Assembly (NCBI GenBank): GCA_951406725.2
Contig: OX597830.1
Coordinates: 67,642,001 to 67,706,000, forward strand
DNA length: 64,000 bases
Reading direction: 5' to 3'
DNA from: Octopus vulgaris
Taxonomy: Eukaryota
Shown here: piece by piece, positions 24,601 to 60,032 of the stretch
How positions within the stretch are numbered: the first letter of the stretch is position 1
Layout of the letters: every line of letters starts with the position of its first letter
Translations under genes and position numbers: made by a program
The notes under the pieces: generated by a model
What the model saw: the letters and a program-made list of their open reading frames with translations, nothing else
Databases searched by the model: none
Told to the model about the DNA's origin: nothing

Positions 24601-27600
24601 TTTAATTTACATCAATCTGTTCCTTATACAATAGAGAAAGGAATCAATATCACAAAATGTAAATTCTTTCACCAATAAAAGGTGTGTGATTGTTAAAATT
24701 ACTCTTCCAGGCAATAACAGAAGAATTTAAGATGGGCTGCCCCTGGGAGCTCCTCTATGCTGATAACCTTGTTCTTACAGCCGAATCACTACCTGAACTA
24801 GAGAAGAAATTTCAGATGTGGAAGGAACGTCTAGAATCAGAGACCTTAGAGATAATCTAGCAAAAACAACCAAAGTTTTAGTAATTAGGAAAGCAGACAA
24901 ATCCTAGATCCTTTCTAGTAGATGTTCCTGCCTGGTCCGTAGGAAAAGTATAAGTAGAAACTTCATAAGATGTACCTGGTGTAAGCTATGGATACATAAG
25001 AGGTGCAGCAATATCAGAGGAAGGTTAACAGGGAAATAGTTTTGTGTGTAGTAGGTGCACAGGTACAATAAACACTAAAAATGTACAGAAAATAGATTCC
25101 ATCAAATGCCAGGGTGAAAAGCTAGAAGTAGTTGATAGGTTCCATTATCTAAGTGACCAAATCAGTAGTGGAGGTGGATGCTCTGAGTGCATAGCTACAA
25201 AAATAAGAATAGGCTGGGCTCAGTTTAGAGAGCTCTTACCTTTGATGGCAACAAAGAGAGCCTCTCCCTTAGAGTGAAAGGTAGATTGTATGATGCCTGT
25301 GTGCGAACAGTCATGCTACATGACAGTGAAACATAGACTGTAACAGCCAAGGACATGTGTAGGCTTGAAAGAAATGAAGCTAGTATGCTTTGCTGGACGT
25401 ACAAGGTCATTGTGAATGTAGGGTAGAGAGTGTCATGAGAAAAAAGTTGGGCATAAGAGATATCCGATGTGGTGTGCAAGAGAGACAACTGTGCTAGTGT
25501 GATTATGTGATGCATATGGATGTAGACAGCTGTGTAAATGTGCTGATTTCTAAGGATAGATTTAACCTGTGGAAGAAGTAAACCCCAGAAGACATGGGAC
25601 GAGGTGGTGAAGCATGATCTTCGAATGTTGGACCTCATGGAGGCAATGACTAGTGACTAAGACCTTTGGAGATATGCTGTGCTTGAGAAGACCAGTCAAG
25701 CCAAGTGTCAAATCATAGTTGTGGCTGAGCTGGTGCCATGTAATAGGTGTTCCATGCCAGTGGCATTCAAATAGCACATTTCGAGCACAGGGCCTCATGA
25801 GGTAATGATGCTGATAAAAAGGACCTTTAAAGCTTTGGGCCTCACAAACAATCGAGACATTTGGTACTTGTACTTGTGATGGCGTTCACCCAGGGCAAGT
25901 TGAGCCAGCTTCTTCTCTGGTCCTAACGGCATCACGAACCATGGCAGCTCACACTCGACGGTTCTGTGCGAGGTCACTGGAGATAGTGAGCCATTCGCGG
26001 TTCCATCTGCGCAGACCAACCACCTGCAGACCTGACACACAACTGACACTGGAACCAGTAGCACATTAAAGCACCCTTAATTCTCTTCGAGTGGTTGGCA
26101 TTGGGAAGGGCATCCAATGGTAGAAACCATGCCAAATCAGACTAGTGTCTGGTGCAGCCCCTCAGCTCACCAACTGTCCAACCCATGCTAGCAGATGTTA
26201 AAAGATGATGTTGATGATTAATGGTATAGCTATCTTAAGAGAGATAAATGTAGAGAAACGTTAGATTGCTATATTAAAGGCCAATCATTTGCTTTTTGTG
26301 AGCCATCTGTTATTTTTCCATCTGTATGCCATTCATAAATAATACTAGTGATCTAATGGAGTAAGATTTAGAAGAGTAGCAATTTAGTATGCTATTTAGT
26401 ACCTCAATTTTATGTCTTCCTGTACCAATTCCTGAACATCATCCTGCAAATAAAAGAAATGATATTGAATATGAGAAAAAATGTTGGGGATTCAACTATT
26501 GACAATCTTATAGCATCAATTTTTGCCAACGATTATAGAAAAGGTATATTTCTTTTAAAACGTTTTTAAAACCAACATTCTTAACAGCCCTTCTCTAAAA
26601 CTTCTAATCTTTGGAACTGCAAAAAAAATTTCTATAGAATTTCTGAATGATCCCCACAAGAATATAATGGTGATTCCATATGACATATTCATACTTAGAA
26701 ACTGTAAGATCTGAGTTTCCAATGACAAGCCAAATTTATGTCTATCTCAGTTTGTTAAATCAGGGGTTTTAATTTAGATGGCTATATTTTTTTAAGTCAC
26801 TTTGGTGTATCAGTTAGCATGGCTAAATAATTTACTGGAGAGATAGTGTTCTATTTCCATAAATATTCTTAGCACATTTTTTCTGTCTTCTTGTTTATAA
26901 GATATACCATCCCTTGATTGTCTTACAACATCTGGGGAAATTAGGAACTGGCTCTACTGATATGAAAAATAGTAAGTTAGCCTCCATCTTATCTAAAATA
27001 ATTTTCCACCACTAATGATATGTAAACTAGCAGCTTACTCAACAAATTTCAAAACAATACTAGTCTGGTTTACCAATATGATACATTGTAGCTCATTCTT
27101 CTAATACGAAAAACAGCATCCAATAATTCTAAACTGAAAACTACTACACTGGCCATAATAGTATGACATAAAGAAGCCTGCTGTAAATGTATTGCATATA
27201 GTTGCTGGATCTACCTGTTGGAAAACTGGTAGATGGCTCCACTAGTTTGAAGAATAATAGCTTGGTCTACAGGTATAAAAAATAGTAGCCTGTTGTACCA
27301 ATATTGGAAAATATATAAATATATTTCAAAACATTATATACAGCATTCTTTTATACAAAAAAAAAAATGAAATTCTCAACAAACCATTCGTTATAGTTTA
27401 TGCAAATAGAACTAATCAAAGAATTATACAAAATTAAAAATAATTACTTATCTGCTTTTCTGAACACTTACCAATATAGGTATTTTTAGTGGAAAGTTTG
27501 GAATACAGCATGAGATAGTTCTTTGAAACGGTAAACTATTCGTATTGCTGTAAAATAAGTAAATGAGAAAATTCCTGATTAGTAAAGTGAATTTGACATG

Positions 27601-30600
27601 AGTGTAGAGTCTAATATTTCAGTCTTTATCATTGAAAAGAAAGTGAAAAACAGAAGAAAAGTTGCATCGTTGCTTGGAATGGAATCAAGGAAATGGAAAT
27701 GGAAGTAAAATTTAAGGAATTGTGTAGCAGGTGGAAAGTTATAAACCAGAGAGAGTGATTCAGTCAGAGATGAATGGTGAGAGGGAAAGAAAGAGTAAAG
27801 GAGTCTAAGAAATTAAGGCAAAAATTAGAAAGAGGCAATTTCTTAAAGGAAGACAAGTAAAAATATACTGAAAATTCTAAGTCACAGAAAGGTGGAGAAA
27901 GTATTTGTGACAGGGACATGTGACAAAGAAGAGGAATCATACCTTAAAACTAGATCAATTTACAGATATATAAATATTTGCAACAGTACCGGTATAACAT
28001 GGGTCATTATTTAATAATTATATCAAATAATATCCATATATATTTAGTGTTTCTTTGCAATTATGTCAGATGAGGTCTCAGCCATTTAGGATAAGAATCA
28101 AAGTGACCAGGTTTATTGTTTCTTTGTGATTCACCAAGAGCCAAAGAATTCATATGGCTATTATCTCATATATGGGAAGGTGCATAGCTTGGTGGTTGGG
28201 CTATTTGCCCCATGATCATAAGGGCTTCAGTCCAATATCTGGCAGTGCCTTTGTGCTTGAGCAAGATACTTTATTTCATGTTGCTTCAGTCCATTCAGCT
28301 GACAAAAATGAGTTGTCCCTGTATTGCAAAGGGCCAGCCTTGTCACATTCAGTGTCTCATGCTGACTCTCTGTGAGAACTGCAATAAGGGTACGCATGTC
28401 TAAGGAATGCTCAGCCACTTGGATGTTAAATTTCACAACAGAGTTGATCCATTGATTCATAATTTCTTTATTCTAACCCATAGTATAGTAATTGTTATCC
28501 AGCCATCAATCTTTTGCTATTATGCAAATCAGTTATAACTAGACACATGCAGTTAACATTTTAACAAATAACAATCAAATATTTGATTAAAAAAAACAAA
28601 AAAACTTCAGTATATTAAGTTGTTTGGAAAATGAACAAGTCATCAATGATTCAAATATCAGCCCTTCTTTTTTAGGTAAAGAAGAGGGAAATACTGTGTG
28701 CTATTTCAGAGCATGATGGTAACAGACACAGGAAGTGTGTAGACAATACATATGGGTTTTAGTAGAAGAAAGAGAAGAACTATTATTATTGTTGTTTTCT
28801 GCATAGGTCATCCCTGATTATGCAGTCATACAACAGACAAATAGGTTAGCAAACAACAAGGTATGAGCCAGAGATTCATCTTGCCAGTTCTACTATGTCT
28901 CCATCTGAGACCTCAGTACACATGCACACTAAGACATTCAATTATGAAATGTATGGTATGTAGCATAGTGGTCTGGAAATATTGCAACCTCTCTACTCTC
29001 TCTCCAGTGAACAATACAAAATGCTGGGGAGCAAACAGTCTATCAAGCTGCCATGTCTATGTAGTGTACAAGAAAAACACATTGAGAATATAATTTTCCA
29101 AATCGAATTTGTTGGGCATCTCCATCGTGTTTTCAATCTCTTCCCACACAACCTTTCCTTACCTCCTTAATACACTTAGACAGCTTCATTAGCAGACACA
29201 TAAATATTCACATCCTCCCAACAAATTACTGATAGTGCTGCACAAATAATCCAATCCAACATAAATTGCTAAGAAACCTGGTCCCAAAACAAGCTTTTGA
29301 GAAACACTTAGGGCTTTTCTGGGTCTGCAAGTCAGTCTTTGATAGAGTGAAGTAAATGAAGTGAAAACCTTTAACCAGGATCAAATGGTCAGTATTGAAA
29401 AGTGGTAGGTCATGGGGTCGAGTCACTAACACATGTAAAATTGAGACAGGTGTGAAGATGATTAGTCAACATGCTGGTGGAGGTTACAGATTTCTCCAAT
29501 ACCAGACTTCATCCATCAACCAAATTTTTTGTGAATACTGATTGATTTTCGTTTTAGATACACCCATCGACAGCTAGAATTAGTCATTAATTAGTTTTAT
29601 CCTAATTGTTTCCTTTCTCTTTTCACCCCTCCCCCACCACTTCTACATCTGATTAACTGTCCCTTTATAGGTATTATCCCCCACTGGAATTAACTTCTGT
29701 TTCTGTAAGTCCTTCCATCATTTGCCATCCACCACATGTACATACACACATATTCACACTACTTGAATCTTACACTTACCCTCTCACATATACATACTGT
29801 GTAGTGACACACCCCTGTCACTCTTTAGTTTTTCCTTATTTCATTTTCACCTATTTTTTCTTATTTCATTTGCACTTACCCTCTCACACATACATACTGT
29901 GTAGGGACACACTTTTTATTCTTTCCTTATTTCTTTTTACCTGAGTTCCACATGTACATCACCAACCCATTTCCACTCTCCTCTTCTAGAACTCACATAC
30001 CTGCTACCACTTCCTGTATCCATTACTATGATGACCATCTGAAATAAAACATGGACAATCCATTTCTCCTTTGCTTAATATTCTCTCTTTTCTCTCTTAA
30101 TAGAAATAGACTTTTGCTTCAATCGTTGTTGTCTTTTCCATTTCCTCTTGGTTATTAATTCGCTGTCTTTATTTTATACTTCTCATAATTTTGTATCTTT
30201 TAATTATTTTTGTTAAGGAACACAAAGACCTGGATTTCTCATAAACTGAATTTCATGCTTTAATTGCAGCTTACCCTTAGCATATGATATGAAACTGTAT
30301 TCTGTAGAATCGTTAAGTAACTGTTCATTTTGATCTTCATCCCAAGCTGCCACAAATCATGGGTTTGGTGTAACCTTTTATGACTTACTCATATTTAATA
30401 TTTATAAGAAAATATAATGGAGTGAATATAATAATATATGTTGTGTTTGGCTCTCATTCATCTTCCATGATTAAATCATTTCATATTAAACACACAAACA
30501 TTACTCAAATCTCCTGCCAGAAAATAATAGAATTCCCAAATCAGTAAATCTCTCTCTCTGTCTCTCTCTCTCTCTCTCTGTCTCTCTCTCCTCTTCTATG

Positions 30601-33217
30601 CACGAATATAATTAAAATTATAATTATCAGATTTCCCACTGAGTTCACAAATCAGTTTCAATTTCGGTTTAATTTGCATAAATCTGTTTCTTATATGATA
30701 AGAGAAAGAAATCAATATCATAGAATCTGAATTGTTTCACCAATAATAATGTGTTTGATTGTTGAAATCATTAATGCTATACTTGTCTTAGAGAAATGAT
30801 GGATTGCTATATTAAATGCCAACCAAATTTTGAATTATTTGAGCATTCTGTTGATTTCTGTCTTTCTGATTTTGTAAATAATGCCAGTGATAGAATTGAG
30901 TAAGATTTGAGAGTGTATTTCCAACATATTATGAGAAAAGACTTATATGGAAATTCGATAGTAAACTGATTTTAAGAGAAGTTTTTGTTTAGCATTTACT
31001 GGGATAATCTCAGCTGAGTGAAGTTTTTAAATTCACTATACACCATAGCTGAAATTCTAACATATATATACATATATATTATTAAATTTTACTAGTTCCT
31101 TGCATTACCTCTCTTCTTCTCTGCTGTATTTAACAATGTTCTGAAAACAAAAGAAATGATATATATAATAGAACTATGCAACAATGTGTTAGCACAAAAA
31201 TAGGGGTTTAAATAATAATGAGGATGTTTGATAGTATCTATCATATTAATTGTTTTATACGAAGCACATGTCAACAATTTTATGGGAAGAAAAATACAAA
31301 GCTATGATAACTTCTTATTTCTCTTCAAACAGAAATTGAAACTAAGAATTGAAACTGAAAATTAAAACCAAGTGAATGTCTCTGATCACTTGGTATTTAT
31401 CTTCCAATGTAAGAAGCTTAGGAAGGTCCAACTAGTGACTATATCCTTCAAAATCTTTCTTCCTCTGTATATGAAGCCAGTACCATTCAACTTATATATT
31501 ATACTCTCTAATTATTATTTTTCTCTCTTTGTCAATAAATAGAAACCGAATCAGACATTGAAGCTAAACACAGTCCTTTAACTCATTGGATGCTATTGAA
31601 TTGTCAAGGAAAATGGAAGTTACTTAATGATAATGATGATGATGATGATGTGATGGAGACAAACACCAACGTTCCATATGGTAGACTTGAATAATTGTTG
31701 AGATATTTCTCTCCCTCCATGAAACTAATGGTAGTCAAGATAACCCAAATGTAAAGAATATTTATCCACCAATATGATGTTGAGAGCACTCATTCTCCCT
31801 GATTGATACTAATGCATGCAGCATGTATGTATGTACGTATGTAATTGTTTTAAGAATAAAACAATTAAAAATTAAAACTAAAAATACAAGACATAAATAG
31901 AATAAAAATTAAAATTAAGGTATAAGCTGTATTGTTAATGAATATATATTCCATTTGAGAATCTAAGGATGTGATTAAGTAATTAAGACGATAAACTCAA
32001 AGTTAATTAAAGGTAAATGTAGATAGATACTTAAATGAAATTGTTTAAATGTATAGTACCAATGGATAGTATTAGTTGTACCAATGTGCAATGATATGGA
32101 GACGTATTGGGTCACCCCATAAATAATGCAGTTTTATCAATTGACTGAACTAAAAGTCGGAGGGGGATGGGATAAACTACCTGCATCAACTTGCTATAAA
32201 AGCAGGTAGTAATTTAACCATGTACATATCTTTAGTGCAAGTTTTGAAGAGTGTAATTCGCTTTTAACAGTTATTTTTTCAAACCTATAATGGAAGTAAC
32301 AAAGGAGCATCTTTGGTGTATTTTACTTTATGTGTTCAATAAAGACAACAATGCAATGGAAAGTGTGAGGAATATTTATGCAGAGTATGATATGGAGATC
32401 AGACAATAAATATAATCCAGAGTCAACAGTGGTTCCAGAAATTCTGAGGACGTCCTACAAACCCTAGTAGAATGAAATCACATCATAACTGTTAAGGAAC
32501 CTGCAGAGAAGCCTGGATTTAGCAGGGAAACTTGGATTCAACCATTCATTGACACCTGTGTGCCATTGGAAAAGTCAGAAAATTGGGTCAATGAGTTCCT
32601 CATAAACTTTCCAAATGTTAAACCCAAACCAAATTATAACAAAGGAGATCTACTATGAGCAACTTGAGTGGCTTATGTTAGCACTAGAAGAAAAACGACC
32701 ATCTTTGGTTTCTAGATGAAAGGTGTTCTTCCATGAGGATAATTCTCAGCTACATACAGTGGGGATAGCATTCTGAAAGCTGAACAGTTTGAATGGGAAA
32801 CGATGTCCCACCCACCATTGCTCCATCTTATTATCATTTATTCCACAGTCTTCAAAAACATTTGGACAGAAAAAATATGAATTCTGTAGATGAGGTTGGA
32901 AAAGTACTAGAGAAGTATTTTTCATCATGGACAAATGAATTTTGGAAGAGGGATCTTACGATTCTACTAGTTAGATGGAAGAGCATTGTAGGAAATGAAG
33001 GAGAGTATATTTTAGATAAAAAAGAACTTTGTTCATCTTAATTATGAAAGATAAAAGAAGTATAAAAACTGCATTATTTATGGGATGACCCAATACATAC
33101 ACATGTGCATATGCATGTGTGAATTTGTGTGCATGCATGCATGAGATCAACGAAATCTGTAAAATGTTTTATTCTTGGAGAAAGAAATAATGTTTTGAAT
33201 ACAATTCAGTTTGATAT

Positions 33218-33265
<48 letters not shown>

Positions 33266-34906
33266 ATGTGTGTGTGGGTGAAACTAAAAATCTAAATTTA
33301 ATTTACTTTGAAAGTTTGCAGTTTTACTTCGATTAAAACAGCAACGAGTCTTTAACTGACATTCCATTGATTGTTTTAGACTTCTCTTCTCGGCGTAACA
33401 AAAGACAAAGGAGTCCATAAAATTTTTACAGCATCCACACATCCGAACTTCAGATTGTAAAGATAATTTATTCCTCTCCATCAACTCGTTTTCAGTAAAA
33501 AGAAGTTCATTGTGAGTAGGACGGAGGTCAGATTAGTTGAAAGCCCCCCTCCCCCTCCACACACTCACACAAATAATTTATTATCAATTTTATTTATTGA
33601 CAATAACTGTCTACATAGAAACAAGCTTTGCCAACTCCAGAAAGAGCAAATGTGGAATCACTTGAATTCATGAGCGAATTTATCCTGCTCCAACCTGTGC
33701 CCATGCCAATGAGATTCAACAAAAGCACGTTAGTAGCAACACTAACACTCTCCGTAATTATAATGTTACTATCAGTCCGAATATGCTTGATGCACATTTG
33801 AACTGGGAAACAAGCTACTAACTGCATTTAGTCATGCAGCGCCACCTACCTAGACTGTGAGATGCTAGTATTTTGGAGTAGTTATCTCCTCTTTGGTCAC
33901 AGATCCTAGGCAGATGATGCTATGAACTGATACTCTTACACTTTTCCAGTCACCATACAGTGACTGGTAGGGCTATACAGCATTTTCAATTATTAACAGT
34001 CCCCAAACCATTTTTGCTATTAATACAAATATACCATTTCATTACTGTAATTTTGCAAACATAGGATGTTTTTTCCTTTTCAGGATTTCAGTTAGTTACA
34101 AACATTTGCTAATTTTAAAATAAAAAAACAAGCCCTATGTAGTGGAGTTTATCACAGAAAGCACACAAGCACACCTTATTAAATGGATTTTATTATTAAT
34201 TTCAAAATGGAAAAGATGTGGTGAATTGTCATGCATGAAATTGTCAGTGCTGAACTGTCATGTGAAGAATTGTTGGGTGCCATTGAAAATACTAGTTGGT
34301 CTAGTACTATAAACAGTATACATCCATACTAAAATAAAAACTATTACACTTGTTATAAAACATGAAAGCCTGCTGTAAATATATGAAATATAGTTATTAT
34401 ATCTACCAATAAGAAATAGCATAGACAGTTCTATCTTTTGGAAAATAGTAGATGGTTCTACCAGGCTTATTCTACCAGTGTAAAATTAGTAGCCTGTTGT
34501 ACCAATGTGCGAAAATATATAAAAATATTCATAAACAGAACATACAACATTCCTTTTAGGCAAATCCATTGATGAAATTCTCAACAAACCATTTGTTACA
34601 ATCTATGCAAAAAAGAACTCATCTATAAAATATAAAATTTATAAAGAATTACTGTTCTTCTTTTCTGAGAACTTACCTTTATATCCATATTTATATCCTG
34701 AATGACCAGATGAGATAATATTCGTAAATCTGTAAAATCAGTAAATGAAAAAATTCCAGATTGGTAAAGTGAATCTGACATAAGTCTAGAGTTTCAAATT
34801 TCAGTCTTTATCTTTTAACTGGGAGTGCAGAATAGAAGAAAAGTTGTGTTTTGGCATGAAATGGAAATAGAATTAAAGTTTAAGGAATTATGTGACAGGT
34901 AAAAAG

Positions 34907-34969
<63 letters not shown>

Positions 34970-37900
34970 AGAGAGAGAGAGAGAGAGAGAGACTGGGCCA
35001 GAGTAGTATGGTGAAAAGTAAACAAGGAGTAAAGGAAACTAAGAAAATAAGACAGAAATTAGAAAGAGGAAATTTCTCAAAGAAAGGCAAATAGAAACAT
35101 GTTGAAAATTGTAAGAGAAGCTAAAAAGATGGAGAAATCTCTATGTAACAGAGGCAAGTAACAAAGAATAGGAATCATATGTTAAAAATAAATCTATTCA
35201 CAGATATATTAGGTTGTCTCACATGAAATTTTGTATTTTAAATGGATTTCTTATGAGTCATCTATAAATGGATTTTTAATGAGTTTCTATGTACATGCTT
35301 GTGTTTACTCTTACTCTTTTTCTTTCTAGACAATTCTGTTATTCAAAATTGCTACCCACAGCTCTTATGACAACGTTGACAACAGAATAATACCAAGTGA
35401 TATTCTTGTATGAATACAAGTTGGGTCACTCTACCACCAAAGCTCTACAAAATATCAAGTGCACTTTTGGTAATGAATCTGTTGACATTAGAACTGTTCA
35501 GAAATGGTTCCAAAGATTTTGTTCAGGAAATGAAAGCATTAAAAATAAATCAAGAGGGAGACTAAAATCTGATATCTGGCATGATGAATTGAATGCTTTG
35601 ATTAAATGGAATCTGAGAACAACAGTCCAGAAAATTAGATCAGAGCTCCAGACATCTGCAACTGCTTCTTGACACTTGAAGAAAATTGGAAAAGTAAAAA
35701 AGATGGATAGATTTGTTCTGTGTTCCATGTTGATTTCTCGGTTGGAAAGAAAACCATTTTTGAATCGACTCATTATGTATGATGAGAAATGGAAACTCTT
35801 TGATAATAATAATGGACAGGAGGTGGATGCAGGTGAGACACTACTCAAAACCACCACTGCATCCTAAAAAGTTGGTCACTGTATGGTCAACAAAGAGGTA
35901 GTTCATTTTTCATTTTTGCAACAAAGAGAAACTTTAACAACAACAACCTATTGTCAGGAAATTTTATGCATGGAAAATTAAAAAAGAAGCAACCTAAATT
36001 AGTGAATAGTGATGGCCCAATTTTGCTTCATGATAATGCATGACCTCACACTTCTCATGCTACAGTCCACAAGTTGCAATGCCTGAATTATGAAATTTTG
36101 GCACATCCTCCTTATTCTTCTGATATCTCTCCTACTGGTTATCACATATTTCAACACTTCAAGCTTGCTATATGCAATAAAACATTCTTAAATAAAGAAG
36201 AGGTAATTGAAGCATCTCAACAATTTATCAGTGATAATTTATCAGATGATAAATATATGCCTTAGAGGGAACGTTGGATGAAGGGCATAAATTAACAACG
36301 ATCATATTTTGATTAAATAAATAAATATTCTAAAACTTAAAAAACAAATTTTAATGTTTCCTTTTTCAAATGTGACATTTCATGTGAGACAACCTCATAT
36401 AAATATTTACAACAGTACCAATATAACATGGGTTATTATTAAATAAATATATCAAATAATATCCATATATTCTTTTATTCGTTATCTTGTTTCAATCATC
36501 TGCCTGTGGCTATGCTGGAGCACTGCCTTTTAGTCAAGCAAATCACCCCCCCGCTCCAGGACTTGTTCCTTGTAAGCCTAGTACTTATTCTATTGGTCTC
36601 TTTTTGCTGACACACACACACACATATATATACATATATACGACAAGCTTCTTTCAGTTTCCGTCTACCAAATCCACTCACAAGGCTTTGGTCGGCCCAA
36701 GACTATAGTAGAAGACACTTGCTCACGGTGCTACACAATGGGACTGAACCTGGAACCATGCAGTTGGCAAGCAAGCTACATACCACACAGCCACTCCTGC
36801 GCCTATATATTTAGTGTTTCTTTGCAATTATGTCAGATGAGGTCTCAGCCATTTAGGATAAGAATCAAAGTGACTAGTTTTATTGTTTTTTTGCAATTCA
36901 TCAAAATTCATAGAATCCATTTGGCTATCATCGCATATATGTGAAGATGTGTGGCTTAGTGGTTGGGGTATTTGGCCCACGATCATAAGGTCTTCAGTCT
37001 GATATCTAACAGTGCACTGTGTGCTTGGGCAAGACACTTTATTTCGTGTTGCTTCAGTCAATGCAGCTGGAAAAAATGAGTTGTCCCCATATTGCAAAAG
37101 GCCAGCCTTGTGACATTCAGTGTGTCATGCTGAATCTCCGTGAGAACTGCAACAAAGGTACATGTGTCTAAGGAATGCTCAGCCACTTGCAGTGTTAATT
37201 TTCTGAGCAAGCTGATCCATTGATCGGATCAACTGGAACCCAAATCATTGTAACTGACAGGGTACCAATATATATATTACATATATAGTGTAGTATCATC
37301 TAGTCATCAACCTTTTACTGTTATGCAAATCAGTTATTACTAGATGCAAGTATGTTTACATTTTAACAAATAACAAACATTTGATAAAAAATATAATGAA
37401 GTCAGTATATTAAGTTAATTCAAAAGGGAATAAATCATCAATGCTTCAAGTATCAGCCCTTCTATTTAGGTAAAGAAGAGAGAAATTAAAGAAAATACTG
37501 TTATTTCAGGCTAAGATGGTAACAGACACAGGAAGTGGGTTGCTGGTATATATGAATTTTAGTAGAAGGTAGTGGAGAATTATTATTGTTCATAGTAGAG
37601 AAAGAAATCAGTATCACAAAAATCTAACTTCTTTCACCAATAAAAAAACATGTCTGATTTTTAAAATCAATAAATCTATAGCTGTGTTAAGACAGGTAAG
37701 CGTAGAGAAATGATGGATTGTTATCTTAAACACCAACCAAATTTTGCTTTTCTGACCTCTCTGCTTTATTTTAATTCTTCTACTATTCAAAAATAATACC
37801 TGTGTCCTAATGGGATCAGGTTTGAAAGTTGAGCAGTTTATTGCATTTCCAACACATGAAAAAATGTTTTAAGGAAATTAACAATCAACTGATCATAAGA

Positions 37901-38708
37901 GTAATCTCCGCTGTTCATTTCTTTCTTTTTTCTTTGCATTATCGACATCCCCAAAAGTTTTTTGTTTAGTATTTACTGGGATAATCTGAGCTAAGCAAAG
38001 TTCTTAAATTCACTATACACCATAGTTGAAATCATAACATATATATATATACTTATTTATTATCAAATATAAGGACATATTTATTGCATTACATTTTTGT
38101 GAATAGTTGGTCTATTTCAGGTTCCTGAAAATAAGCGAAAGAATAGCAAACGTTAGAAGGAATGATGGAGTTCAAACTTCTGACATTAATGAAATAATAC
38201 ATAGATTAAATTTTTACAACAAATTATGCAGAGAAACATAATTAAATACAAAGTGTACACGTTTAAGACATAAATGTAGCCAAGATTATCTGGTGGAGAT
38301 AATCCAATAGCTATTAACAGAGATATACGATTTCTTTTTTCCTATTTACAGTTTTTAGTGTGGTACACTGGTTTTGATATGAGATTTGAATGGATGAAAT
38401 CGTCTGGATCAAAATAGTTTCCCATGATGATAACAGTATTTTATTTAATCATTTTAAACATTTGTGTAAGACTTGACAGAAAATTGCACCTCCAGTCGTG
38501 GTAAATATTTTACAATCAATATTTTAAACAACCTCACAGAAAACCAGCCATCCACCTAATCACTAATCAGTCTGGTGGGCACATAAGCCAGATCGACTAT
38601 TCTTTGTAAGCCTAGTACCTATTCTATTGGTTCTTTTTGCTGAACCGCTAACTTACAGGGACATAAACACACCAACATCGGTTATGCAATGGTAGGGTAC
38701 AAACACAG

Positions 38709-38752
<44 letters not shown>

Positions 38753-41700
38753 GCATGTATTTATCTACAGATTATGATATTCTCTTCTCATTGGATCGTA
38801 GGAAAACATTAAGTGATAGGAAAGAGTAATTTTGATATTTCAAATGACCACCACAAACATTCTATGAAGTAACATAAAATTATCAAAACAGTTTTCAGAA
38901 ACTTTGCTTTCAAAGACCTGTATAATGTAAAAACTAGCAACTTATTCAAATATCAAAAATACTAGCCTGATCTAACAATATGGTATACAGTAGCTGGTTC
39001 TTCTAATATTATAAATAGTATCCAGCCATATTAAAATGGAAACTAATACACTGACCATAATAATATTTAAAAACATAGAAGACTGCTGTAAATATATGAA
39101 ATATAGTTGCTGGATCTACCAATAGGAGATAACGCAAACAGTTCTACTTATTGGAAAATAGTAGTTAGGTCTTCCCGTCTGAAGAATCATAGCTTGGGCT
39201 ACCAGTATCAGAAATAGTAGCTTGTACCAAGATGAGAAAATATATAAAAATATTCATAAACAGGATATACAAAATTCCTTTTATACAAATGCATTGATGA
39301 AATTCTCAACAAAAATTTCATCATAATTTATACAAACAGAACTAATTAAGCATACATAAAAGTTTTAAAAGACTTACATTTTCTAGCCATGAATCGTCAG
39401 CTGATCTGCAAAATCAGAAAATGAGAAAATTCCAGATTAGTAAAATGAGCCTGTCGTAATGAGTGAAGCATCTTATAGTTCAGGCTTTATGAAATGTAAT
39501 GTGTCTTGAATGGCTCAACAATGCAGAGTGGACTGTAATAACTGTGAAATAATTTAATTATTTATAGTCTAATATAATATTTAGGAATATAAAAATTCCT
39601 TCTTCAGATATTGCTTGGAATGAATCGAGTCACTGTTATAATCGGTTACTGATTTTTTTTTGATTTTTTTGGAAGTGTCTCTGCAGTGGTCTCATGAAGC
39701 TCCTTCTGAAATTCCTCATGAGGAGTGCTTGAGGGTGGCCATGTCTCAAGCTTATGTGTGTTGGCATATCCACAATGTTGCTTCTAAGTTATGTATTATA
39801 CGTGCATTTTTTTATACATAAGCATGTTACTATTGTGCGTGCAGGATGTCAATGTAAAATAATATAGTGATTGCTAATTTCCAACCTGTTGTTAATTTGG
39901 GGCCCTAATCTGTCTGTGAGGATAGCTTCTTTAATTCTGAAATTTCTGTCATTGGCTTCAGTTGTGATTGTTATGTTTTCCTCGGTGTTCTGGCATCTGT
40001 CCAGATGTTTTCTGAAGGAGGAGGCTCACGTGTTTAAATATTCTTTGATGCGAATGTGTGACAGTCTGGTTGTGCCACCCACTTAAAAATTGTTGCATTT
40101 GTTACATTGGATTCTATACACAGCATTTACTCGTTGGCATAAATCTGTGTCGCGGATAGTTTGTGGTTGGGTTCTTGGTTTGTGGGGGGGGGGGAGTGGG
40201 TGGTCTAGTTGGTACGTTGGAAATTTGCTGAGTGTGTTGTTGCTGTTTTTCTTTATTACCAATTGCCATTTGAGTTGATCGGCTGTTCAGGAAAAGGTAG
40301 GCTTCCAGGTTGAGTAAGATTTTCTCGTTCGGCTGTTGGCTCAAGATAAATTTAGGGCCCAGACTGATGAGTTCTAGCTCTTCATGGGAGAGTGACCCAC
40401 TCAAGTGTGTGACTAGGGGTTTCATTGTTGATGGTATGCTGGTGCCCCTGATGTTAGGGTTATCTTGATCAGTGGATGTCCCATTCATCTGTGTCAGTGT
40501 AATAGACTGAGTTGTGGCAGTATTTGGTACAAAGCTACAAGAATTTAAGTTTGAGGCGTTTCTTCTCTTGGTTAACACAGTGCTGGAAGCATTGGTCAAT
40601 AGCTGTGGAGGTTTTTCGGTGTGTAGATTACACATTCGCACCAAAGAACATCTAAACGTGAGTCTCCTCTTTGAGAAAACTTCCAGACAAAAGCATAACA
40701 GTCACAATTGAAGCCAATGACAGAAATTTAGGAAATTTAAGAATTAAAGAAGCTATCCTCATAGACAGACTAGGGGCCTCAAATTAACAACAGATTGGAA
40801 ATTAACAATCACTATTATTTAACTACATTGACATCCTGCACGTACAATGGTAACATGCTTATGTATAAAAAAAATGCATGTATAATACATAACTTAGAAG
40901 CAGCGCTACGGAAATGCCAACACACATAAACTCAAGACAGGGCTGCCCTTGTGCACTTCTCAAAATAAATTTTAGAAGGGATTTCGGGAGACCACAACAG
41001 ACACACTTCCGAAAAAAAAATTCAGTAACCGTTGGAAAACTGATTATAACAGTGACTCGATTAATTCCGAGCAATATCTGAAGAATGAATTTTTATATTC
41101 CGAAATATTATATTAGACTATGAATAATTAAATTATTTAACAGCTATTATTGTCCACTCTGGCCTGTTGTGTCATTCAAGACACATTACATTTCAAAAAC
41201 AATATACAATGCTTCCAGCGAACAACAGTAACCATTTTCAGTCTTTACCTTTAAACTTAGCATGAGGAATAGACAAAAGGTGTTTCAACCAGAGATAAAA
41301 GGTGAGAGGCGAAGAAAGAGATAAAGGAAGAGAAGAAATTAAGACAGAAGTTGGGAAGAGGTAACTGGCAAAAAGAAATTATACCGTAATATAGATCAGT
41401 TCACACATGCGTATGCACTCACACACATGCACACAAGTATATATATCCTGCGTTTCAAATTATTAATGGCGTAACATTTAAGTTTTATTCAAAAGTGGCG
41501 ATCGTTCGTTACGAGAACAAGATAGCCTATATGGATGGATGGATATATATATAAATATATATATATAAACAGATAGACAGATAGATATCTATAATAATGG
41601 TATTTTTATATAAGCTTAAAGCTTATGGCGATCACCGTGCAATGACTAGGGAAAATAGTCTAATAAAGGGGCATATAAGCCCTCGACAGAAAAAAAGAAG

Positions 41701-43048
41701 GCATTGATTAATTTTAATTTTAATCCTTCAGCTATTTAATGCTTTTCTTGGGCATGCAATCGCCTATATATTAAATCTGTTGTCATTTTTTAAAATAGTC
41801 ATTCCAGATAATAACAATATTAATAATATCTTAGCAAATTTCGAGAATTATATTTTCTTGTGAATTGTTTGCCCTTGTATCGAGAGTATTTCCTCACTGG
41901 TAGCTGTAATTTGATTTCAGTGCAAAACGAAACAGGGGTAACACAAACTTCAATACAATAGTTTGGGGGTGCTTTCTGTCTGAATCATAATGTCTGTATT
42001 TTTCCGCATATTTAGAAAATAAAAAAATTCTTAATAAGAGTTTTACAAAAAGTTTTGGAAATTTTTTCAGAATCATAATCTCTGTATTTTTTCACATATT
42101 TTTGGGGAAAAAAATTCTGAAAAAAGTGAAAAAATGAAGGAAATGGGGGTGGGGGTAATTTAAAAATGCCGATTTTTGCCAATTTTTTTGCAGATTCGTA
42201 TTTCCCATAGCCGAAAAGGGGCAGGTTTGTGTCAAAAAAAATTTTTTTTTGAAGGGTGGTTTTTGGAAGGGGACGGGTGGAAGTCTTGCCAACAAATATA
42301 TAAATGAACTAGCTTAAGGTGACCCACTCTACGCATGGGTGAGGGTGTGGTTGCTACTTTCTGTTGCTTCCTTTCTGTTTCTTATCACCACATTCTCCCT
42401 CTTTGTTTCTCTCTCCTTTCTCTCTCACTTTCCCACTCTCTTACTCTTCCTTTCTCTCAGACTCTCCCTTGCTTTCTCTTACTCTCTATCTTTATCTATC
42501 TCTCTCCCATTTATAAAAAAATTAGATTTCCACGCTTAAATTACAAATCCACTTCCACTTTACCATGTTGAAAATTTAATTGAAATCGGGCAAAAGGTGT
42601 CCAATCTAGACCCCCAAGTGTCCCCCAGAATCAATAAAATCCCCGTTTTCACACCAAAGCAACCACTGAAGCGCCCCAAAATGTCTTCCAATCAATTTCT
42701 TACCTCAAGTTACCCCCTCCTGTAAATTTTAATCCCCATCCAGCCCCATTAGACCCCTTTTACATAAAAATCTAATTTGTATCACTGTTCGCCTTCTTCA
42801 TTTTATAGATTAGACAGATATACCCGGCCTTACTCGGGATTAAAATAGTTTATTATTGTTTTGCTTGTTTCGGTATTATAACCCGATTTCATTTGGGTCT
42901 ATGCGGGTCACATTTTAAAAGATGAGGAATTTTGTCCCAGAGGCCATGCCTTTCAATTGAGCAAACTCAAAGGTGCCATGCAAACTCGCTAGCACTTTTA
43001 ACATAGGTGTGCATATTTTCAGCTCAGTCAGACCACATATGCACACAT

Positions 43049-43094
<46 letters not shown>

Positions 43095-46000
43095 CGCATT
43101 AAATATGTACATATATACTCATTATATATACATGTCTACACACAACTTTCAATAGGAACATGCTCAGCATTGGTAGTATAAATGTACATGGCTTGGGGTC
43201 ACCTTGGAAACAAGGCTACCTGTTAAACGACATCAAGTCACAAAATCTGCAGACCAGACTCTATCAGCGAAACCAGACTCCACAGCCTGCGGGCATTCCA
43301 GCACATGTTCGGCAGATATTTCAACATTTTTCTACATGTCTACCGAGAATGGGCAGAGGTGGCACCACGGTGCTTCTTCGGAAGTGTCTGGACCTCAAAA
43401 TAAGAGCAATTTTCCTAGACCCGGAGGGTAGGCTGGTTGTTTGGATGTCAATGGCAGCAATGGGTGTGCTTTTTGACCGATTACAGTTTATGCACCATTC
43501 TTAACAGGCCGGCCAGATTTCTTTTGACGTCTAGAGGTTTTCCTGGGTACGTCTCAACCTTTACTTTTACTGAGGGATTGGAACACTGCTTCAAAGACCC
43601 GCTCAGATGTTTTCAACTGTTTGGGAGGTACTGACTGGACCACCCGAATGTGCCGATGTGGACATGGAACAAACACATTGGGTCATCCAGATTGTACTTA
43701 GAATATTCTGCAGGACAGTGGATAAAGATAGTGTAGGTTGTCCACAATTCCATATAGTCAGCTACACAGACCACAAACTTGTGACTTGTACACTTGACTT
43801 AGTTAAGACATATAGGGAAGGTCCCAGTTACTGGAAGCTGAACATGTCATTCACAGCACACCAGGCTTACAGGAACTGGATTAGCACATTAGTTAACTGG
43901 TGCCATCATCAACAACAGATGGTGGTATGCCCTAAAGAAAGCAATTAAAGCAAAATCAGTGAGGTACAATAAGGCCCTAGCATTAGACTGAAATAGAATA
44001 GAGGGAGAGAGAGTTAGTTAAGAAAATAGAAGAGGCACTTAGATCTGGCATCACATCCAATGTACTGGCAGTGAGGTTGGTCCCCAACCAACACTTCAAC
44101 ACCAAACACGAAGGATACATTGTTAGAGCTAGGATGCATGCTTTGAGGAATAAAGGAGTTGGAGCCACCCAAGAGGCCCAAGTGGCGGAGGTGCAACAAG
44201 GCAACAGAGCCACCATTAGGTCACTTACAGATGAAGAGGGGCGTGAATTACTTGAGCCTGAAAAGATGTGTGAGGCCTTTCAACAACACTTTGCCCGACT
44301 GTTCAGGACAACTGGTGGGTCAGAATGCAGAGTGTTCCGTAGTACCTACCTTCGTGGCCTGCCACGACTCTCAGCAAGAGAGGCAGAGTGTTGTAAAAGA
44401 CCCATCACAGCCGCAGATGTATGGGATGTGATGGTAGGCTGCGCGAGAGACAAGTCACCAGGCTTGGATGGTCTGCCCTATGAACTTTATTGCCATATGC
44501 CAGACTTGTTTGGAGGCATCTTGGTAGCTGTCTACTGCAACTGGCAGCAAAATGGGAATATCCCAGTCTTTATAAAGCAAGGAGTGGTGATCCAAACAAG
44601 GGAAACGACGTAGATAACTTCAGGTCCATCACTCTGCTCAATGCAGATTTGAAAATTTTGGCCAAGGTGTTAGCCAAGAGGTTGGCGCCTGTCATCAAGA
44701 AACTAGTCGACAAGGCACAAACGTGCGCCATGCCGGTATCCATGACAACCTCCATCTTATTTCTTTATTGCCCACAAGGGGCTAAACATAGAGAGGACAA
44801 ACAAGAGGGGTCAACCTCCATCTGATGCACTACATCATAGACAGGGTAGTTAAGGAACCTGGCATGGGTGGGGTGATGATCAATTTAGATCAATCAAAAG
44901 CTTTTGATAGGGTAGACCATCACTACTTGGAGGCTGTCCTCAAAGCGGCTGGTTTCAGTCCCGTCTTCTGTGGTTGGATCGCTACCTTATACAGCGGCAT
45001 CTGCTCGGTATTTCACATAAATGGTCATCTATCCAGATCATTTAACATCATGCGTTTGGTTCATCAAGGTAGCCCCCTCTCATTGTTGCTGAATATTTTG
45101 ACTCTTCAGCCACTACCATGGAAGCTGGTAATGCCGAGGGGCATGCTATGAGAGCTGGGATGTGAGAAGAGCGTGTCTGCATATGTGGACGACGTCACCA
45201 TCATAATGTCAAGCCACAAGGATATCGACCTGTACGGAGAGACACTAAAAGAACATGAAGCGGTAATGGGAGCAAAAATTAATCGAGAAAAGTCAGTGGG
45301 CTTGCGGCTCGGCACCTGGAGAAGCAAGCCCAAGGCATCCAACAGTGTCTCCATCGTTGGACGCTTGACCAACAGACCGGTTCAATTTCTCAGGGTCTGA
45401 TTCGGTCCAGATTTTCAAATGGAGAAGAACTGGGGCGAAATAATGACTAGAGTGGCCTAAAAGGTCGCATACATCACATCCGTCATCGATTACCATCTGA
45501 CCATCGTGTCTTGTCCCAACCCTACCATCACCAAACTGGAACGCATACTCTTCCATTTTTTGTGGAAGGGAAGCGTTCCAATGGTTAGGCAGTCCATTGC
45601 TGTCAACACCCGCTAAATGGAGGCCTAGGCATGAGGTAGTTGATAATGCGCTGAGACTGTGTCATCTCCGGCCCTTCATAGACGACGGTAAACAGGTGTG
45701 GTCGCCGTTTGTGTGGTGTGCTTTCCTGCAGCTCATTTCCTTGGCTGAACTGCAGTTGTGGAATAGACAGAGACCGAGGCTAGGTGAATGGGACTGCGAG
45801 TGTCGCGTTGCTGTCAAGCAACTCTGCCGTCCGGGACCAAACTTGTGTGACTTCATTACAACAAAGGCATTCTATAGAGGATTAGTGGAGGGAGATGCAA
45901 TGACATTCTCAGGCAGAATCTGGGTGTTGATAAGGAACACCTGACCTGCCTGTTCAGGACAACTTTCGGGCCAGGACCTATGGATTATCACCAAAGATCC

Positions 46001-46516
46001 CTGGCCTGGCAGTGCTATCGAAAAGCATTACCTGTTCGGGATAAGCTCTACAGGCACGGTTCGAGACACACTGGACCGACTTGCCCGAGATGCAGTCAGA
46101 GTGATGAAACCATTCTGCACGCACTCATGCAGTCTCTAACCATTTTGGACCTGTGGGCTTATGCCAAATGGCTGTTTTCGTGTGTGAGACGAGTCCACCT
46201 GTCGGCCGAGTCTATCGTAATAACTGCTCCACCATCTTCCCTCAACTTGGAAGGCAAGACAGTCTTCATCATACTGGTGGCCATGGTGAAAGAAAGTGTG
46301 TGGCAGACTCGAGCGAAAGGATTAGAGACAAACACTTACCTCTCTGGCCAATCGCTCATCAACTTTTTCAAGTACCACTTGAAAAGGAAGGTGAGAATGG
46401 AGAGGCAGGTTTTGTCTTGTGAAAGTTTCAAAAAGAAGGTGGGTGAACGTAGCAAAGATGGTGCATGTGAGTGACGAAACCACTTTGAGCATGATCCTGT
46501 AAATCGAAAACAGAGA

Positions 46517-46566
<50 letters not shown>

Positions 46567-49376
46567 ACTTTGCTCTCATTTGTTTATTCCCTCCCTGCCT
46601 GAGGATACCGTGGTCTTTTCCATAGGCTTTTCTTTCCACTGATAAACATAATCTTGCTTTTCAGATTTTTAAAATTCTTCTGTGATACACGATCACTTTT
46701 GACCGTCTTTATCTCCCACCGATGCCTTTTGATCAGAATTTTACATTTTTTCTCAATTTTTCCATTTTTCTTTTCCATTTTCAAAAAGAAAAGCTTTACA
46801 TTTGTATTTGTCCCCTCTCCGTTCAGCCCTGTGGGGCCAAAAAAGAAAGTTATCTATCTATCTATCTGTCTGTCTTTCTGGCTGTCTGCCTGCCTGCCTG
46901 TCTGTATGTATGTCTATCAGTCAATCAATCAATCTATCTATTTTCTCTCTCTCTTCTCTGACTCTATCTCTCTCTTCCTCCCTCTTTCTCCCTCCATCAT
47001 TCTTTCATGTCCTCACTCTCTCTGCCCTTCTCACACTGTTTATGAATATAATTAAAATCATTATTAGTAGAAATTATGAATTTCCCACAGAGTTCACAAA
47101 CCAGTTCGAACTTCTGTTAATTTGCATAAGTCTTTTCTTCATATAATAGAGAAAGAACTCAACATCACAGAATCTAATTTCTTTCACCAATAAAATTGTG
47201 TGTGATTGTTAAAATTGTTAATAGCTGTGTTAAGAGAAATAAGTGTAGAGAGATGATGGATATTAAAGGATAACCAAATTTTGGATTTTTTAAATGTTTT
47301 ATTAATTTTTTTCTGCTATTTGCAAACAGTACCAGTGAGCTAATCGGGTAGAATTTGGAAGAGTAGCAATTTAGTATATTTCAAACATATATAAAATGAG
47401 GTATATAGAAATCAATAAAAAAAACTGATATTCTTTGTTATCTCCCTTACTTATAGTTTTTGGGGTGCCACTGTCTACTAAAGAAATTTTTGTCTACTAA
47501 TTACTTGGATAATCGCAGCTTACAATATACCATAACTGAAACCCTGCTATATATATATGTACTTATATATTATCAAATTTAGGGACATATATCATGCATT
47601 ACCTGTCTTCCTCCGAGCTGTCCTTATCGTCTTTCTGAAATTAAAAGAAATGATATTGAATGTTAGAAGGAATGACAGAATTCCAACTTGTTACAACAGA
47701 TTATACTGAGAGAAGACCTTACTGAATATAAATAGTACAAGAGGTGAGAGTAGTGACAATTATCTGATGGAGACTATGTAATCCATATTATCACAGATAC
47801 ACATGATTTTTTTTTTCTTATTTATAGTTTTAGCATGGTACACTGGTTTTGACATAGGATTTGAATGGAAGAAATCTTTTAACTAAAAACAGTGTCAAAT
47901 GATGATATGAGAATTTTTATTTAATCAATTTAAACTTTTGTGTAAAATTCAACGTCATATGAGACTTAGAAATGTATACAATACCCCACAACTAGCTTTA
48001 AATTGACTAAAAAGAAGAGACGAAAGTGTGTAAATAGAGAACAATTAAAAGGTCATGTTACTGAATAGACATTTAATTTGCATGTATTGGACGATCTTTT
48101 ATTTGACGTACCTTGAAAGAAAATTGCACCTACAGCCCTGATTAACATTTTAAAATCAAAATTCCAAACAACCTCTCTCTCACATTGATAATAATTGCAA
48201 CTGGAACAAATCATTCGATAAGGCATCTGAATGATTCCCAGAAGAACAGAATCATGATTCTATATAATATATTCCTGACAGAATATAGCTGAAACAAATA
48301 TTGAGCAGTCAAAGTCCTTGTTTGGTAACTTTGCTCTGTATCTGATTCCTTTCATGCATTGGCAGATCTTGATGAGATACTAGAGATATATAGAGATATA
48401 CATTTCACCTTAATTTACATAAAATTTAGATCTCTATACAGATAACATGAATTATTTAGTCATATTCCAATGAAAAGCACAAAGAAACATTCAGTAAACC
48501 TATCAAGAAAATATTCCAAGACTGATGGTTACTAAAGCAACGTTAAAGCTTCACCATCTCTGACGACCTCTCGTAACAAACAGAAATGTATTTCTGCCAT
48601 TATTGGTGCAGCTTTATAATACTCATTATGAAGCAGTATAACACAGAAAATAATAATCACCGAATTTCTACGATGTGGTAGAGGCCTACAATACAGGAGT
48701 TATGAAAAGTATTATACACTAGCATACCTATGTCCTCAAAAATGCAGGCAACTTTATTAATGATACAAAATGGCACATGAGTGCAGGGGGAGAAAACATA
48801 TAAGTGTATATATATATATATATATATAAAGAGGTATGTTATAAGGTATTTCTCCAAATGTTTACTGTTTTCCTTATAATTTTTGAAAACCTGATTAAAT
48901 TTGATGATTAGTATATAAATTCTGTTATGATTCTTATTAGATAAGAATTTAGAGATATATTCCATTGGTTTATTTCAAATAGATAACCCTTAAGCATGTA
49001 GGTTTCCTGGAGTTTTAACATAAATTAATAATTAAAATAATAATGATAATAATATAAGCAAAAATAAAAGATGAGTACCATTGTTATCAAGTGAACGATA
49101 GTTTGACATCTCGTGAGACTTCAACAGGTCCAAATAATAATTTTGTCAATCTACTTCATTTTGGTGAATATATAAAGGATTGAGGTACCTCCCCCAGATA
49201 TAGAAACAAAATAAAAGAAGAGTGTCATTGTCATCAAGTCACAAGATGTCGAAATATCCTTCACTTGATGACAATGGCACTCTTTTATTTTTGCTTCTAT
49301 ATCTAAAGGAGTTACCTCAATCCTTTCATCATCATCATCATCATCATCGTTAATAATAATAATAATAATAATAATA

Positions 49377-49424
<48 letters not shown>

Positions 49425-50740
49425 AAGGAGTATGAAGTAGCATTTCATGAATTTTAAGTTTCGTTTTGATTTAAATGCAACTGAATATTGACCTACACAA
49501 GTTTCCATTACATTGGTTAGTAACCATTGTAATTGTAACTTTACTGTAATACTGGTGCAGTTTCTTGAAGGTCTTCATTGTGATATCCTTTCTGATCGAA
49601 CTGGTGAAAGTTTCATGTTAATTTTAGTATTACATAAAATAAAGTGGTGTTAAACGTTAATTCAGATGTAAACTTTATTTTGAATTCAAAGAATTGATTG
49701 GATAAATTCTCGTTTGTTTCTTAGAGTCAGTTATTTCAAAATATATCATTCGATTGATTATATTACGATTGATTATTTAGCACTTATTTATATTGTGTAA
49801 AATTAATTTCCCTTCTTATGTAAACATCTTAATTTTTGTTCGTGTCTAAAATTTATTACATTATACTTTTTGATAAAATTCTTCTATGCACAGGTTTTAT
49901 TTATTTGTCCCTGGTCTATAAGCAGTACTAATTACTTCTCTAGATTGCTAGGCCTTTACAGTTCCAGGCTTGACAAGCTACCACTAAAATGGAAAAAGTG
50001 TATTGACAATATAGGTGCATACCTTGATGAATAAAACTATTCCTTGTATTTATAAAACATGAGCAAACTTTTTTCTTTTCTACAAATTTCATCCTTTATG
50101 ACCTAATAGAAGCATTTTGTACCAACGTGAGGAAATATATGAAAATATTCACAAAGAGGATATGCAAAGTTCATTTTACACAATCCAGTGATGAAATTCT
50201 CAACAATTCAATTATCACAATTTATGAAAGCAACAAAAATAAATCATAATTTAAAAGTTAAAAAAAGACTTACTCTTTTTAGTAGCTCAAAATATTCATC
50301 AAGTAAGTCACTGCAAAATATGTAAATGTGAAAATTTCAGATTAGTAAAGTGAATCTGTCATTATGAGGCTAGAGTCTAATATTTCAGTCTTTATCTTTT
50401 AACTGAAAGAAAGAATGAAATGGAATCAAGAAAATGGAAGTGAAACTAAAATTTAAGGAATTGTATGGCAGCTGAAAAGTTATACCCAGTGAGAGTGATT
50501 GGATCAGAGAAGAAAGGTGAGAGGTGAACAAGGAGTAAAGGAAACTAAGAAATTAAGGCAGTAGTTTGAAAAAAGCAATTTCTCAAAGAAAGATAAGTAG
50601 GAATATACTGAAAATTGTAAGAGTGGGAGAAAAGATGGAGAAACTATTTGTGAGAGAGGCTAGTAACAAATAAGAGGAACCATACTTTAAAAATAGATTT
50701 ATTCACACACACACACACACACATTAAAATTAGATTTATT

Positions 50741-50778
<38 letters not shown>

Positions 50779-55696: not shown

Positions 55697-55839
55697 CATA
55701 CCCCCTGGAAACACATCCAGAGCAAGCACACAGGGACGCGCGCACGCTCACAGCATATCGTGCGGGCGGGCACATGCGCGCATCGGCACGCATAGGACAC
55801 ACTAGCGGGCATTGACCGCACACATACGTGGCATGCACA

Positions 55840-56001
55840 CGCATGCATTATATATATGTAGGTGATGTATGTGTGTGAGTGTTGTGTGTGTGTGTGTGTG
55901 TGTGTGTGTGCACGTTGTGTGTGTGTGCGCGGGTATATATATATATGTGTGTGTGTGTGTGTGCACTGTGTGCGTGTGTGTGTATATGTGTGTGTGCGCG
56001 C

Positions 56002-56035
<34 letters not shown>

Positions 56036-56128
56036 GTGTGTGTGTGCACTGTGTGCGGGTGTGTGTGTATGTGTGTGTGTGTGTGTGAGCATTGTGTACG
56101 TGTGTATGTATTTACATGTGTATTTGTT

Positions 56129-56163
<35 letters not shown>

Positions 56164-56370: not shown

Positions 56371-56403
<33 letters not shown>

Positions 56404-57141: not shown

Positions 57142-57184
<43 letters not shown>

Positions 57185-57190
57185 TGTGTG
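55840..57190. repeat. Compound (TG)n/(TA)n microsatellite tract
   Basis: Seen directly. Confidence 0.95.

Positions 57191-57888: not shown

Positions 57889-60032
<2,144 letters not shown>

Follow-up and report, generated by a model that had tools for sequence, protein, structure and literature searches.

Dscam-type exon clusters and the schistosome micro-exon genes are arrays of small duplicated exons that are used alternatively, and the coding sequence of the schistosome genes consists mostly of individually symmetric micro-exons. Dscam-like cassettes are further characterised by alternative or mutually exclusive exon choice and by docking/selector RNA elements. Neural microexons are 3-27 nt long and frame-preserving. 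According to the principle of exon shuffling, a phase-symmetric exon pair duplicates without frameshift and varies in copy number.

TRPM channels conduct cations as tetramers. Their melastatin region is drawn as one per subunit in the accessible part of PMC13143021, and surveys, as far as their accessible text goes, regard it as single and invariant. In human TRPM2, the MHR1/2 residues Y295, R302 and R358 bind ADP-ribose (PMC6759353, accessible in part). For Octopus vulgaris, one betaTRPM is listed in Table 1 of PMC13402157 and two TRPMs in all are given by PMC12919962, in the portions of these papers that were accessible. Our literature search, which covered listings and main texts, found no account of a multi-SLOG octopus TRPM or of the exon array described below. 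Neither such an architecture nor such an array appears in the accessible portions of PMC13402157, PMC13143021, 10.1101/2024.05.23.594666, PMC6759353 and PMC12919962, and that of PMC13402157 contains no mention of SLOG, tandem, exon or LSDAT.

The window, i.e. the whole stretch of 64,000 nucleotides analysed here, corresponds to positions 67642001-67706000 of the O. vulgaris sequence OX597830.1 (C17), and the closest named proteins of its gene are from Octopus. The worthwhile finding at this locus is an Octopus family of multi-SLOG, TRPM2-like genes that annotation has fragmented.

Structure and splicing of the exon array

Nine small exons on the minus strand of the window alternate strictly between two types, A and B, and all nine have AG/GT ends (Table 1). 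The five A exons are all of phase 0→2 (four of 32 nt, one of 41 nt), and three of the four B exons, of 28, 37 and 76 nt, are of phase 2→0. Duplicated intronic units surround the array exons, as found by self-BLAST and by flank similarity. In all these respects the original prediction was borne out, as it was in taking the exons for coding exons of a TRPM gene: the TRPM SLOG family PF18139, which represents the N-terminal SLOG/MHR1-2 region, matches 4 of the 6 pieces of downstream window exons. Between A2 and the TRP box, 24 of the 24 exons read in the window gene have an open frame; one small exon was not located and one donor was adjusted by eye. The phases also agree with the proposal that any A exon can join any downstream B exon, or the DAFG exon, without a frameshift. 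The peptide encoded by A1 has a homologue in modules 1, 3 and 4, namely DVKKWIQENIKLR (modules are numbered from the 5' end, M1 to M5). Since the array stops at an assembly gap, the window lacks its 5' end.

Table 1. Exons of the window gene and assembly features, in window positions
Feature	Position	Length and phase	Strand	Remark
A5	53042-53011	32 nt, phase 0→2	-	also in O. sinensis and O. bimaculoides gene models
B4	50310-50274	37 nt, phase 2→0	-	40 nt in three other copies
A4	47634-47603	32 nt, phase 0→2	-	AG/GT ends
B3	39405-39378	28 nt, phase 2→0	-	B3→A3 joint in runs X1 and X2
A3	38124-38093	32 nt, phase 0→2	-	A3→B2 joint in runs X1 and X2
A3 extension	38053..38092	40 nt, intronic, to cryptic GT	-	stop in upstream frame; ATG (38078) in frame with B2
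B2	34729-34677	53 nt, phase 2→1 as assembled	-	B2→A2 joint in run X2
A2	31140-31109	32 nt, phase 0→2	-	A2→B1 joint in run X2
B1	27547-27472	76 nt, phase 2→0	-	B1→A1 joint in runs X1 and X2
A1, first exon of SLOG module 5	26443-26403	41 nt, phase 0→2	-	A1→DAFG joint in run X2
DAFG exon of module 5	20723-20642	82 nt, phase 2→0	-	
FLRVDH exon, module 5 SLOG	13820-13643	178 nt	-	next after DAFG; the "13820 exon" of the original prediction
AWIISTG exon, module 5 SLOG	7891..8036	146 nt	-	
GSWPAKY exon, module 5 SLOG	6559..6730	172 nt	-	
TGFKVPA exon, module 5 SLOG	2241..2350	110 nt	-	
GTGQAAD exon, module 5	314..393	80 nt	-	
Assembly gap (N)	53403-53502		.	cuts array on its 5' side
Start of next contig	53503..64000		+	repeat-rich; long module-4 intron of plus-strand copy

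Contig joints were examined over positions 20550-40500, which cover six of the nine array exons and the DAFG exon. Runs X1, X2 and X7 were taken as RNA by guess, X18 is of DNA type, and X2 is labelled as another organism; the contigs may come from any of five genomic copies that are 96-97% identical. Among the 15 joints listed out of 529, the consecutive GT-AG joints from B3 to the DAFG exon were found 6/6 in X2 and 3/6 in X1, and 0/6 both in X7 and in the DNA-type X18. The five array joints of X2 all have a depth of 253.3 and its A1→DAFG joint has a depth of 331.5; from the equal depth we deduced that one X2 contig runs from B3 to A1. Neither a skip junction nor the extended A3 donor (+40 nt) was present among these 15 of 529 joints, contigs being prone to drop rare forms. 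The array exons are in use, and the form observed includes them consecutively. The junctions M4→A6→B5→A5→B4→A4 are known from predicted gene models only. Of the junctions that were to be counted according to the original prediction, the six consecutive ones from B3 to the DAFG exon were recovered in X2, and no skipping ones were among those listed. The combinatorial set of N-termini that it had proposed is unsupported, all joints listed being consecutive and five of them coming from one contig.

The window also contains repeats and other elements. Positions 58663-59639 and 63025-64000 form a 93% direct repeat, located in the long intron of module 4, at which the O. bimaculoides models split, and belong to a tandem repeat family also found at C17:79.428 and 69.478 Mb. 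Two different SLOG exons are each closely followed by an intron segment (6251-6506 and 13361-13603), and these segments are 72% identical. Palindromic elements at 5568-5839, 9971-10105 and 49052-49300 are 89%, 84% and 67-79% self-complementary, respectively, and MITE-like by appearance. Families of degraded fragments with reverse-transcriptase-like ORF pieces, which we take to be retrotransposon-like, occur at 8537-9541, 18398-19349 and 24707-25708, at 16307-16603 with 54626-54925, and at 16810-18060 with 58772-60063 and 63134-63997.

Position of the array among modules and gene copies

The original prediction had placed the array at the N-terminus of the channel. This is probably wrong: in complete copies of the gene, as in the gene models of two other species, the array is preceded by the terminal part of a SLOG/MHR3 module. 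One copy, at C17:79.26-79.66 Mb, covers 400 kb without a gap and comprises, on a single strand throughout, N-terminal small exons, a chimera of M1 and M2, M3, M4, an array of 11 exons, M5, MHR4 and the pore, and the phases match at M4→A6. The O. bimaculoides models XP_052830018-20 begin in the tail of M4, include all 11 array exons and continue into M5, and their neighbour XP_052830016 has four SLOG domains and ends at an intron run-off; O. sinensis XP_036366207 carries three SLOG domains and half of the array. These predictions presumably have RNA support, since exons of 28-52 nt are hard to find otherwise. Next to the window, an unbroken M1-M2-M3-M4 on the plus strand adjoins the window contig on the left, and an M4 end with another array lies on the right. 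The 130-kb contig of the window is reversed relative to both neighbour contigs, so that it is either misplaced or a further copy. The window gene extends past the window to the pore (C17:67577678) and the TRP box.

We consider with a probability of about 70% that the array, whose exons are spliced consecutively, encodes a likely flexible, acidic internal linker of ~140 residues. This linker would connect modules 4 and 5 in a TRPM2-like channel that is specific to Octopus and has likely up to five SLOG/MHR3 modules before one MHR4-pore unit. Asp and Glu make up 25% of the linker (40% of its first half). AlphaFold gave a pLDDT below 50 over residues 80-232, which a shallow alignment may explain, and mostly 80-95 for M5; for the two-module protein P0009, module 1 was folded and module 2 had a pLDDT below 50 with few aligned rows. 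The full protein is estimated at 2,700–2,800 aa by adding fragments, the array amounting to ~5% of it. Among the records examined, none, whether transcript, contig or gene model, reaches from M1 to the pore, all database models being fragments; we infer that all modules are joined to the pore in one mRNA.

Related arrays were found on C17 at 67.76-67.80, 68.04-68.08, 79.37-79.41, 56.94-56.97 and 69.46 Mb, and long-block comparisons of four of them gave about 96-97% identity with the window. Complete copies have 11 array exons, with A6 and B5 added. The number of units, for which a comparison of orthologous loci had been suggested, differs among genomic copies (11 exons in two copies, one additional A/B pair in another and a triple unit at 69.46 Mb), and the 11-exon order is kept in O. 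bimaculoides. Together with one small contig, C17 holds at least 30 DAFG exons (by type 7 M1, 3 M2, 7 M3, 7 M4, 4 M5 and 2 single-module) and at least 26 FLRVDH exons, against 8 pore exons of this group. The module order is co-linear in all clusters: M1-(M2)-M3-M4-array-M5-pore.

Some loci depart from the complete form. At C17:44.47-44.61 and 68.50-68.63 Mb, the pore exon comes after M1-M2-M3 or M1-M3 DAFG exons only, and in O. sinensis XP_036366250 M1 is joined to the channel; the module number may range from 1 to 5. Three A5/B4 units, repeated every 4.3 kb, lie isolated at C17:69458935-69468893, with no DAFG exon found nearby. In the neighbouring copy, at C17:67763712-67772958, A6 and the B5 donor are lost and an additional A/B pair is gained, a sign of recent array turnover. 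A second set of small exons (B type of 49 nt, C type of 56 nt, and others) precedes module 1 at C17:79641212-79649128 and 67810723-67831078, and its repeat number differs among the models P0003, P0007 and P0157; these exons are a better candidate for a length-tuned N-terminus. The same intronic element precedes the helical exons of M4 and M5 (C17:67635359-67635517 and 79415589-79415783), and model P0001 wrongly takes it as an exon (residues 304-358). P0001 was not retained as independent proof, because it uses this intronic repeat as an exon and because several of its exons are 100% identical to the 79.35-Mb copy.

Origin of the phase lock and alternative readings

In the 79.4-Mb copy, the acceptor flanks are similar among the array B exons (z 6.7-13.3) and among the A exons (z 4.0-19.7) except A2, whose acceptor flank has diverged and whose donor flank matches (z 3.1-6.3). 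The flank pairs between A and B exons have z values of at most about 3. The likeness within the array is not due to chance. The acceptor flanks of A6, A5, A4, A3 and A1 resemble those of the first exon of modules 1, 3 and 4 (z 4.1-11.2), the donor flanks being likewise common, and the B acceptor flanks resemble that of an N-terminal 49-nt 2→0 exon (z 7.0-10.9). Three B exons have donor flanks matching a 28-nt exon located between M3 and M4 (z 7.0-8.3). The first exon of module 2 (32 nt, EDDMDTSEEAR) is the likely template of A4 and A5. A derivation of the B exons from decayed DAFG exons was discarded, the flank z values being mostly below 3, with a maximum of 4.0, vs 6.7-13.3 among B acceptors. 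The phase lock is inherited, A from the first exon of the modules (0→2) and B from the N-terminal exon (2→0). As a 2→0 and 0→2 pair duplicates frame-neutrally, alternation and phase need no selection for skipping, and since exon lengths changed by multiples of three only, the frame was kept.

A possible history would begin with the duplication of the block running from the module first exon (A, 0→2) through MHR3, at whose end the phase is 0, giving modules 1-5. A 2→0 exon from the 5' end of the gene (B), brought beside an A exon, would have formed a frame-neutral pair that unequal crossing-over then multiplied. The frame would have been retained while the amino-acid sequence drifted; between species, the linker is 70% identical vs 82% for M5. 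Linker length and module number vary by gene copy, so that tuning would be mainly genomic, with minor splice variants.

According to another reading, the gene would encode a multi-SLOG antenna, with up to five diverged modules in an expanded family of giant TRPMs, and the array would be its splice switch: in-frame skips would set the tether length, and the cryptic donor of A3 would split the gene, giving a multi-SLOG protein that is soluble and a channel with one module. We regard this as unlikely.

A regulated cassette, in which the A exons join different downstream B exons to produce many linker or N-terminal isoforms, is rather less probable. All A→B or A→DAFG skips would be in frame, and two automated models (P0155 and P0005) have a predicted skip from B3 to A1 or A2; however, the phase lock is inherited, the joints listed (15 of 529) include 0 skips, and one X2 contig spans B3 to A1. 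The O. bimaculoides isoforms X1 and X2 differ by 13 aa directly after A6, but neither of the two copies scanned contains a counterpart of this insert between A6 and B5 (best scores of 17-22 in a search from M4 to B5), and isoforms X1-X3 of this species retain all 11 exons. In O. sinensis, a 70-aa in-frame skip in related N-terminal exons distinguishes isoform X1 from X4. A search for shorter array-variant proteins in the database gave 2 matches among 98 candidates, neither of them transcriptome-derived. Alternative use of the array is possible, its hints being at the annotation level only; the clearest indication of genuine skipping comes from the true N-terminus, which lies beyond the window.

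It is also quite improbable that the locus encodes two products, whether as a soluble gene with SLOG modules alone (M1-M4) and, after it, a channel of one module starting in the array, or as one gene split by the extended A3. All database models are indeed split, but the splits fall at run-offs into introns (VKVSK and EVNFCLSYFPYF, each followed by a stop), beside gaps, repeats or frameshifts, and XP_052830018-20 connect the M4 tail via the array to M5. In-frame ATGs occur within B5 and A5. The O. bimaculoides isoform X4 (MSLYLII..) starts at the ATG of the A3 extension, which is conserved in the window, and O. sinensis XP_036366207 terminates at the stop of this extension; yet runs X1 and X2 contain the normal A3→B2 joint, and the extended form is absent among the joints listed.

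B2, the fourth B exon, was left aside in the original prediction. It breaks the frame as assembled (53 nt) but is in frame, at 52 nt, in 4/4 other genomic copies, and the B2→A2 joint of run X2 (31141/34679) fits the 52-nt form. The additional base falls within a run of A, and similar single-base errors are found in other copies; no B2 indel is present among the 12 of 84 indels listed for the runs on 20550-40500. In the gap-free 79.4-Mb copy, at least 3 exons contain single-base frameshifts, as does B2 of the window copy; in view of these frameshifts, there may be pseudogenes or haplotype duplicates among the gene copies. That the window copy is itself a frameshifted pseudogene or redundant haplotype, its array drifting without function, is very improbable: in spite of the 53-nt B2, of the overlap with the neighbour contig from A5 to A2 at ~96% and of an exon divergence equal to that of introns among five copies (85/2522 vs 369/12797 differences; N:S 59:12, the pairs not being independent), the downstream exons are all open, the additional base lies in an A run with comparable errors elsewhere, the 11-exon order is retained in O. 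bimaculoides at 70% identity, and the lengths of the B exons (28, 37, 40, 49, 52 and 76) and of the A exons (32, 38 and 41) differ by multiples of 3 only, for which a hand estimate gives ~(1/3)^7 if indels were free.

Channel features and comparison with known systems

MHR3-MHR4, the six-helix channel and the TRP box are present in exons past the window, and PF25508 and PF00520 were found on proteins P0001 and P0128. Among solved structures, the best match is human TRPM2 (6mix, E 2.8e-94). The modules group by number across three Octopus species, in one clade apart from the single-module octopus TRPMs (100/99), and P0121 and P0003 each contain 4 PF18139 stretches, against the single melastatin region usually drawn.

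At the positions of Y295, R302 and R358, the single-module octopus TRPM has F/R/R. The counterparts are S/R/Q in M5, which keeps R302 only, S or P/R/G in M4 and F or S/K/Q or K in M3; M1 has F/R/R or P, its GGAK and GGPG loops being altered, and M2 is devoid of the Y295 stretch. No module retains the complete set of three residues as well as the GGAK and GGPG loops. NUDT9-H (PF25969), the C-terminal domain of TRPM2, was not found on P0001 or P0128, and the 3' end of the window gene itself runs into a gap. With an ADP-ribose site that is incomplete in every module and no NUDT9-H, gating by ADP-ribose in the TRPM2 manner appears unlikely from the sequence. Module 5 would occupy the usual place under the pore, in a standard M5-MHR4-pore core, and modules 1-4 would hang on the linker as additional cytosolic domains, nucleotide-sensor-like or scaffold. 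The predicted protein is a standard-core channel with a tethered chain of diverged sensor-like modules, probably not gated as TRPM2 is.

Against the counts given by surveys, one chromosome carries 8 pore exons and about seven copies of the multi-module form. A TRPM with stacked MHR1-3 regions would test how far the MHR1/2 sensor is separable from the gate and what SLOG domains bind after the ADP-ribose site has drifted. The array also illustrates how a disordered linker can arise out of exons of the same gene with the frame intact, and how genes of this kind get lost from annotation.

Four or five modules were found in Octopus only, among the best 150 matches, and the named multi-module matches at 57% identity or more are all from Octopus. 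Module doubling is not unique to octopus, since models of TRPM with two SLOG domains exist in the jellyfish Sanderia (P0161) and in one other animal (P0162, XP_072049892). In both, two PF18139 stretches precede the MHR4/channel part; these unverified models have two modules, 32-34% identical to an octopus module, and possibly represent independent doublings. The candidates from sturgeon (P0158) and oyster (P0160) were set aside, as they look like assembly or model fusions.

TRPM2 and betaTRPM have the same usual succession as the octopus gene, from SLOG (MHR1/2) through MHR3 and MHR4 to the six-helix channel and the TRP box. They differ in having one MHR1-3 module, whereas the octopus gene likely has up to five in tandem, with a linker built from microexons; compared with TRPM2, the octopus models scanned also lack NUDT9-H and have a degenerate ADP-ribose site. 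The array differs from neural microexons in that its exons are 28-76 nt long and none is a multiple of 3; TGC occurs within the last 20 intron bases at 3/10 acceptors. With the Dscam-type and schistosome arrays it has in common the small duplicated exons within one gene. Their exons are used alternatively, in contrast to the consecutive inclusion in octopus RNA-type contigs, and the octopus exons are not symmetric singly but only as A+B pairs. Another likeness is to the duplication of a frame-symmetric exon pair: a 0→2 exon plus a 2→0 exon, varying in copy number here too, with the difference that the octopus pair derives from the module-start and 5' exons of its own gene and that the exon bodies have diverged beyond recognition.
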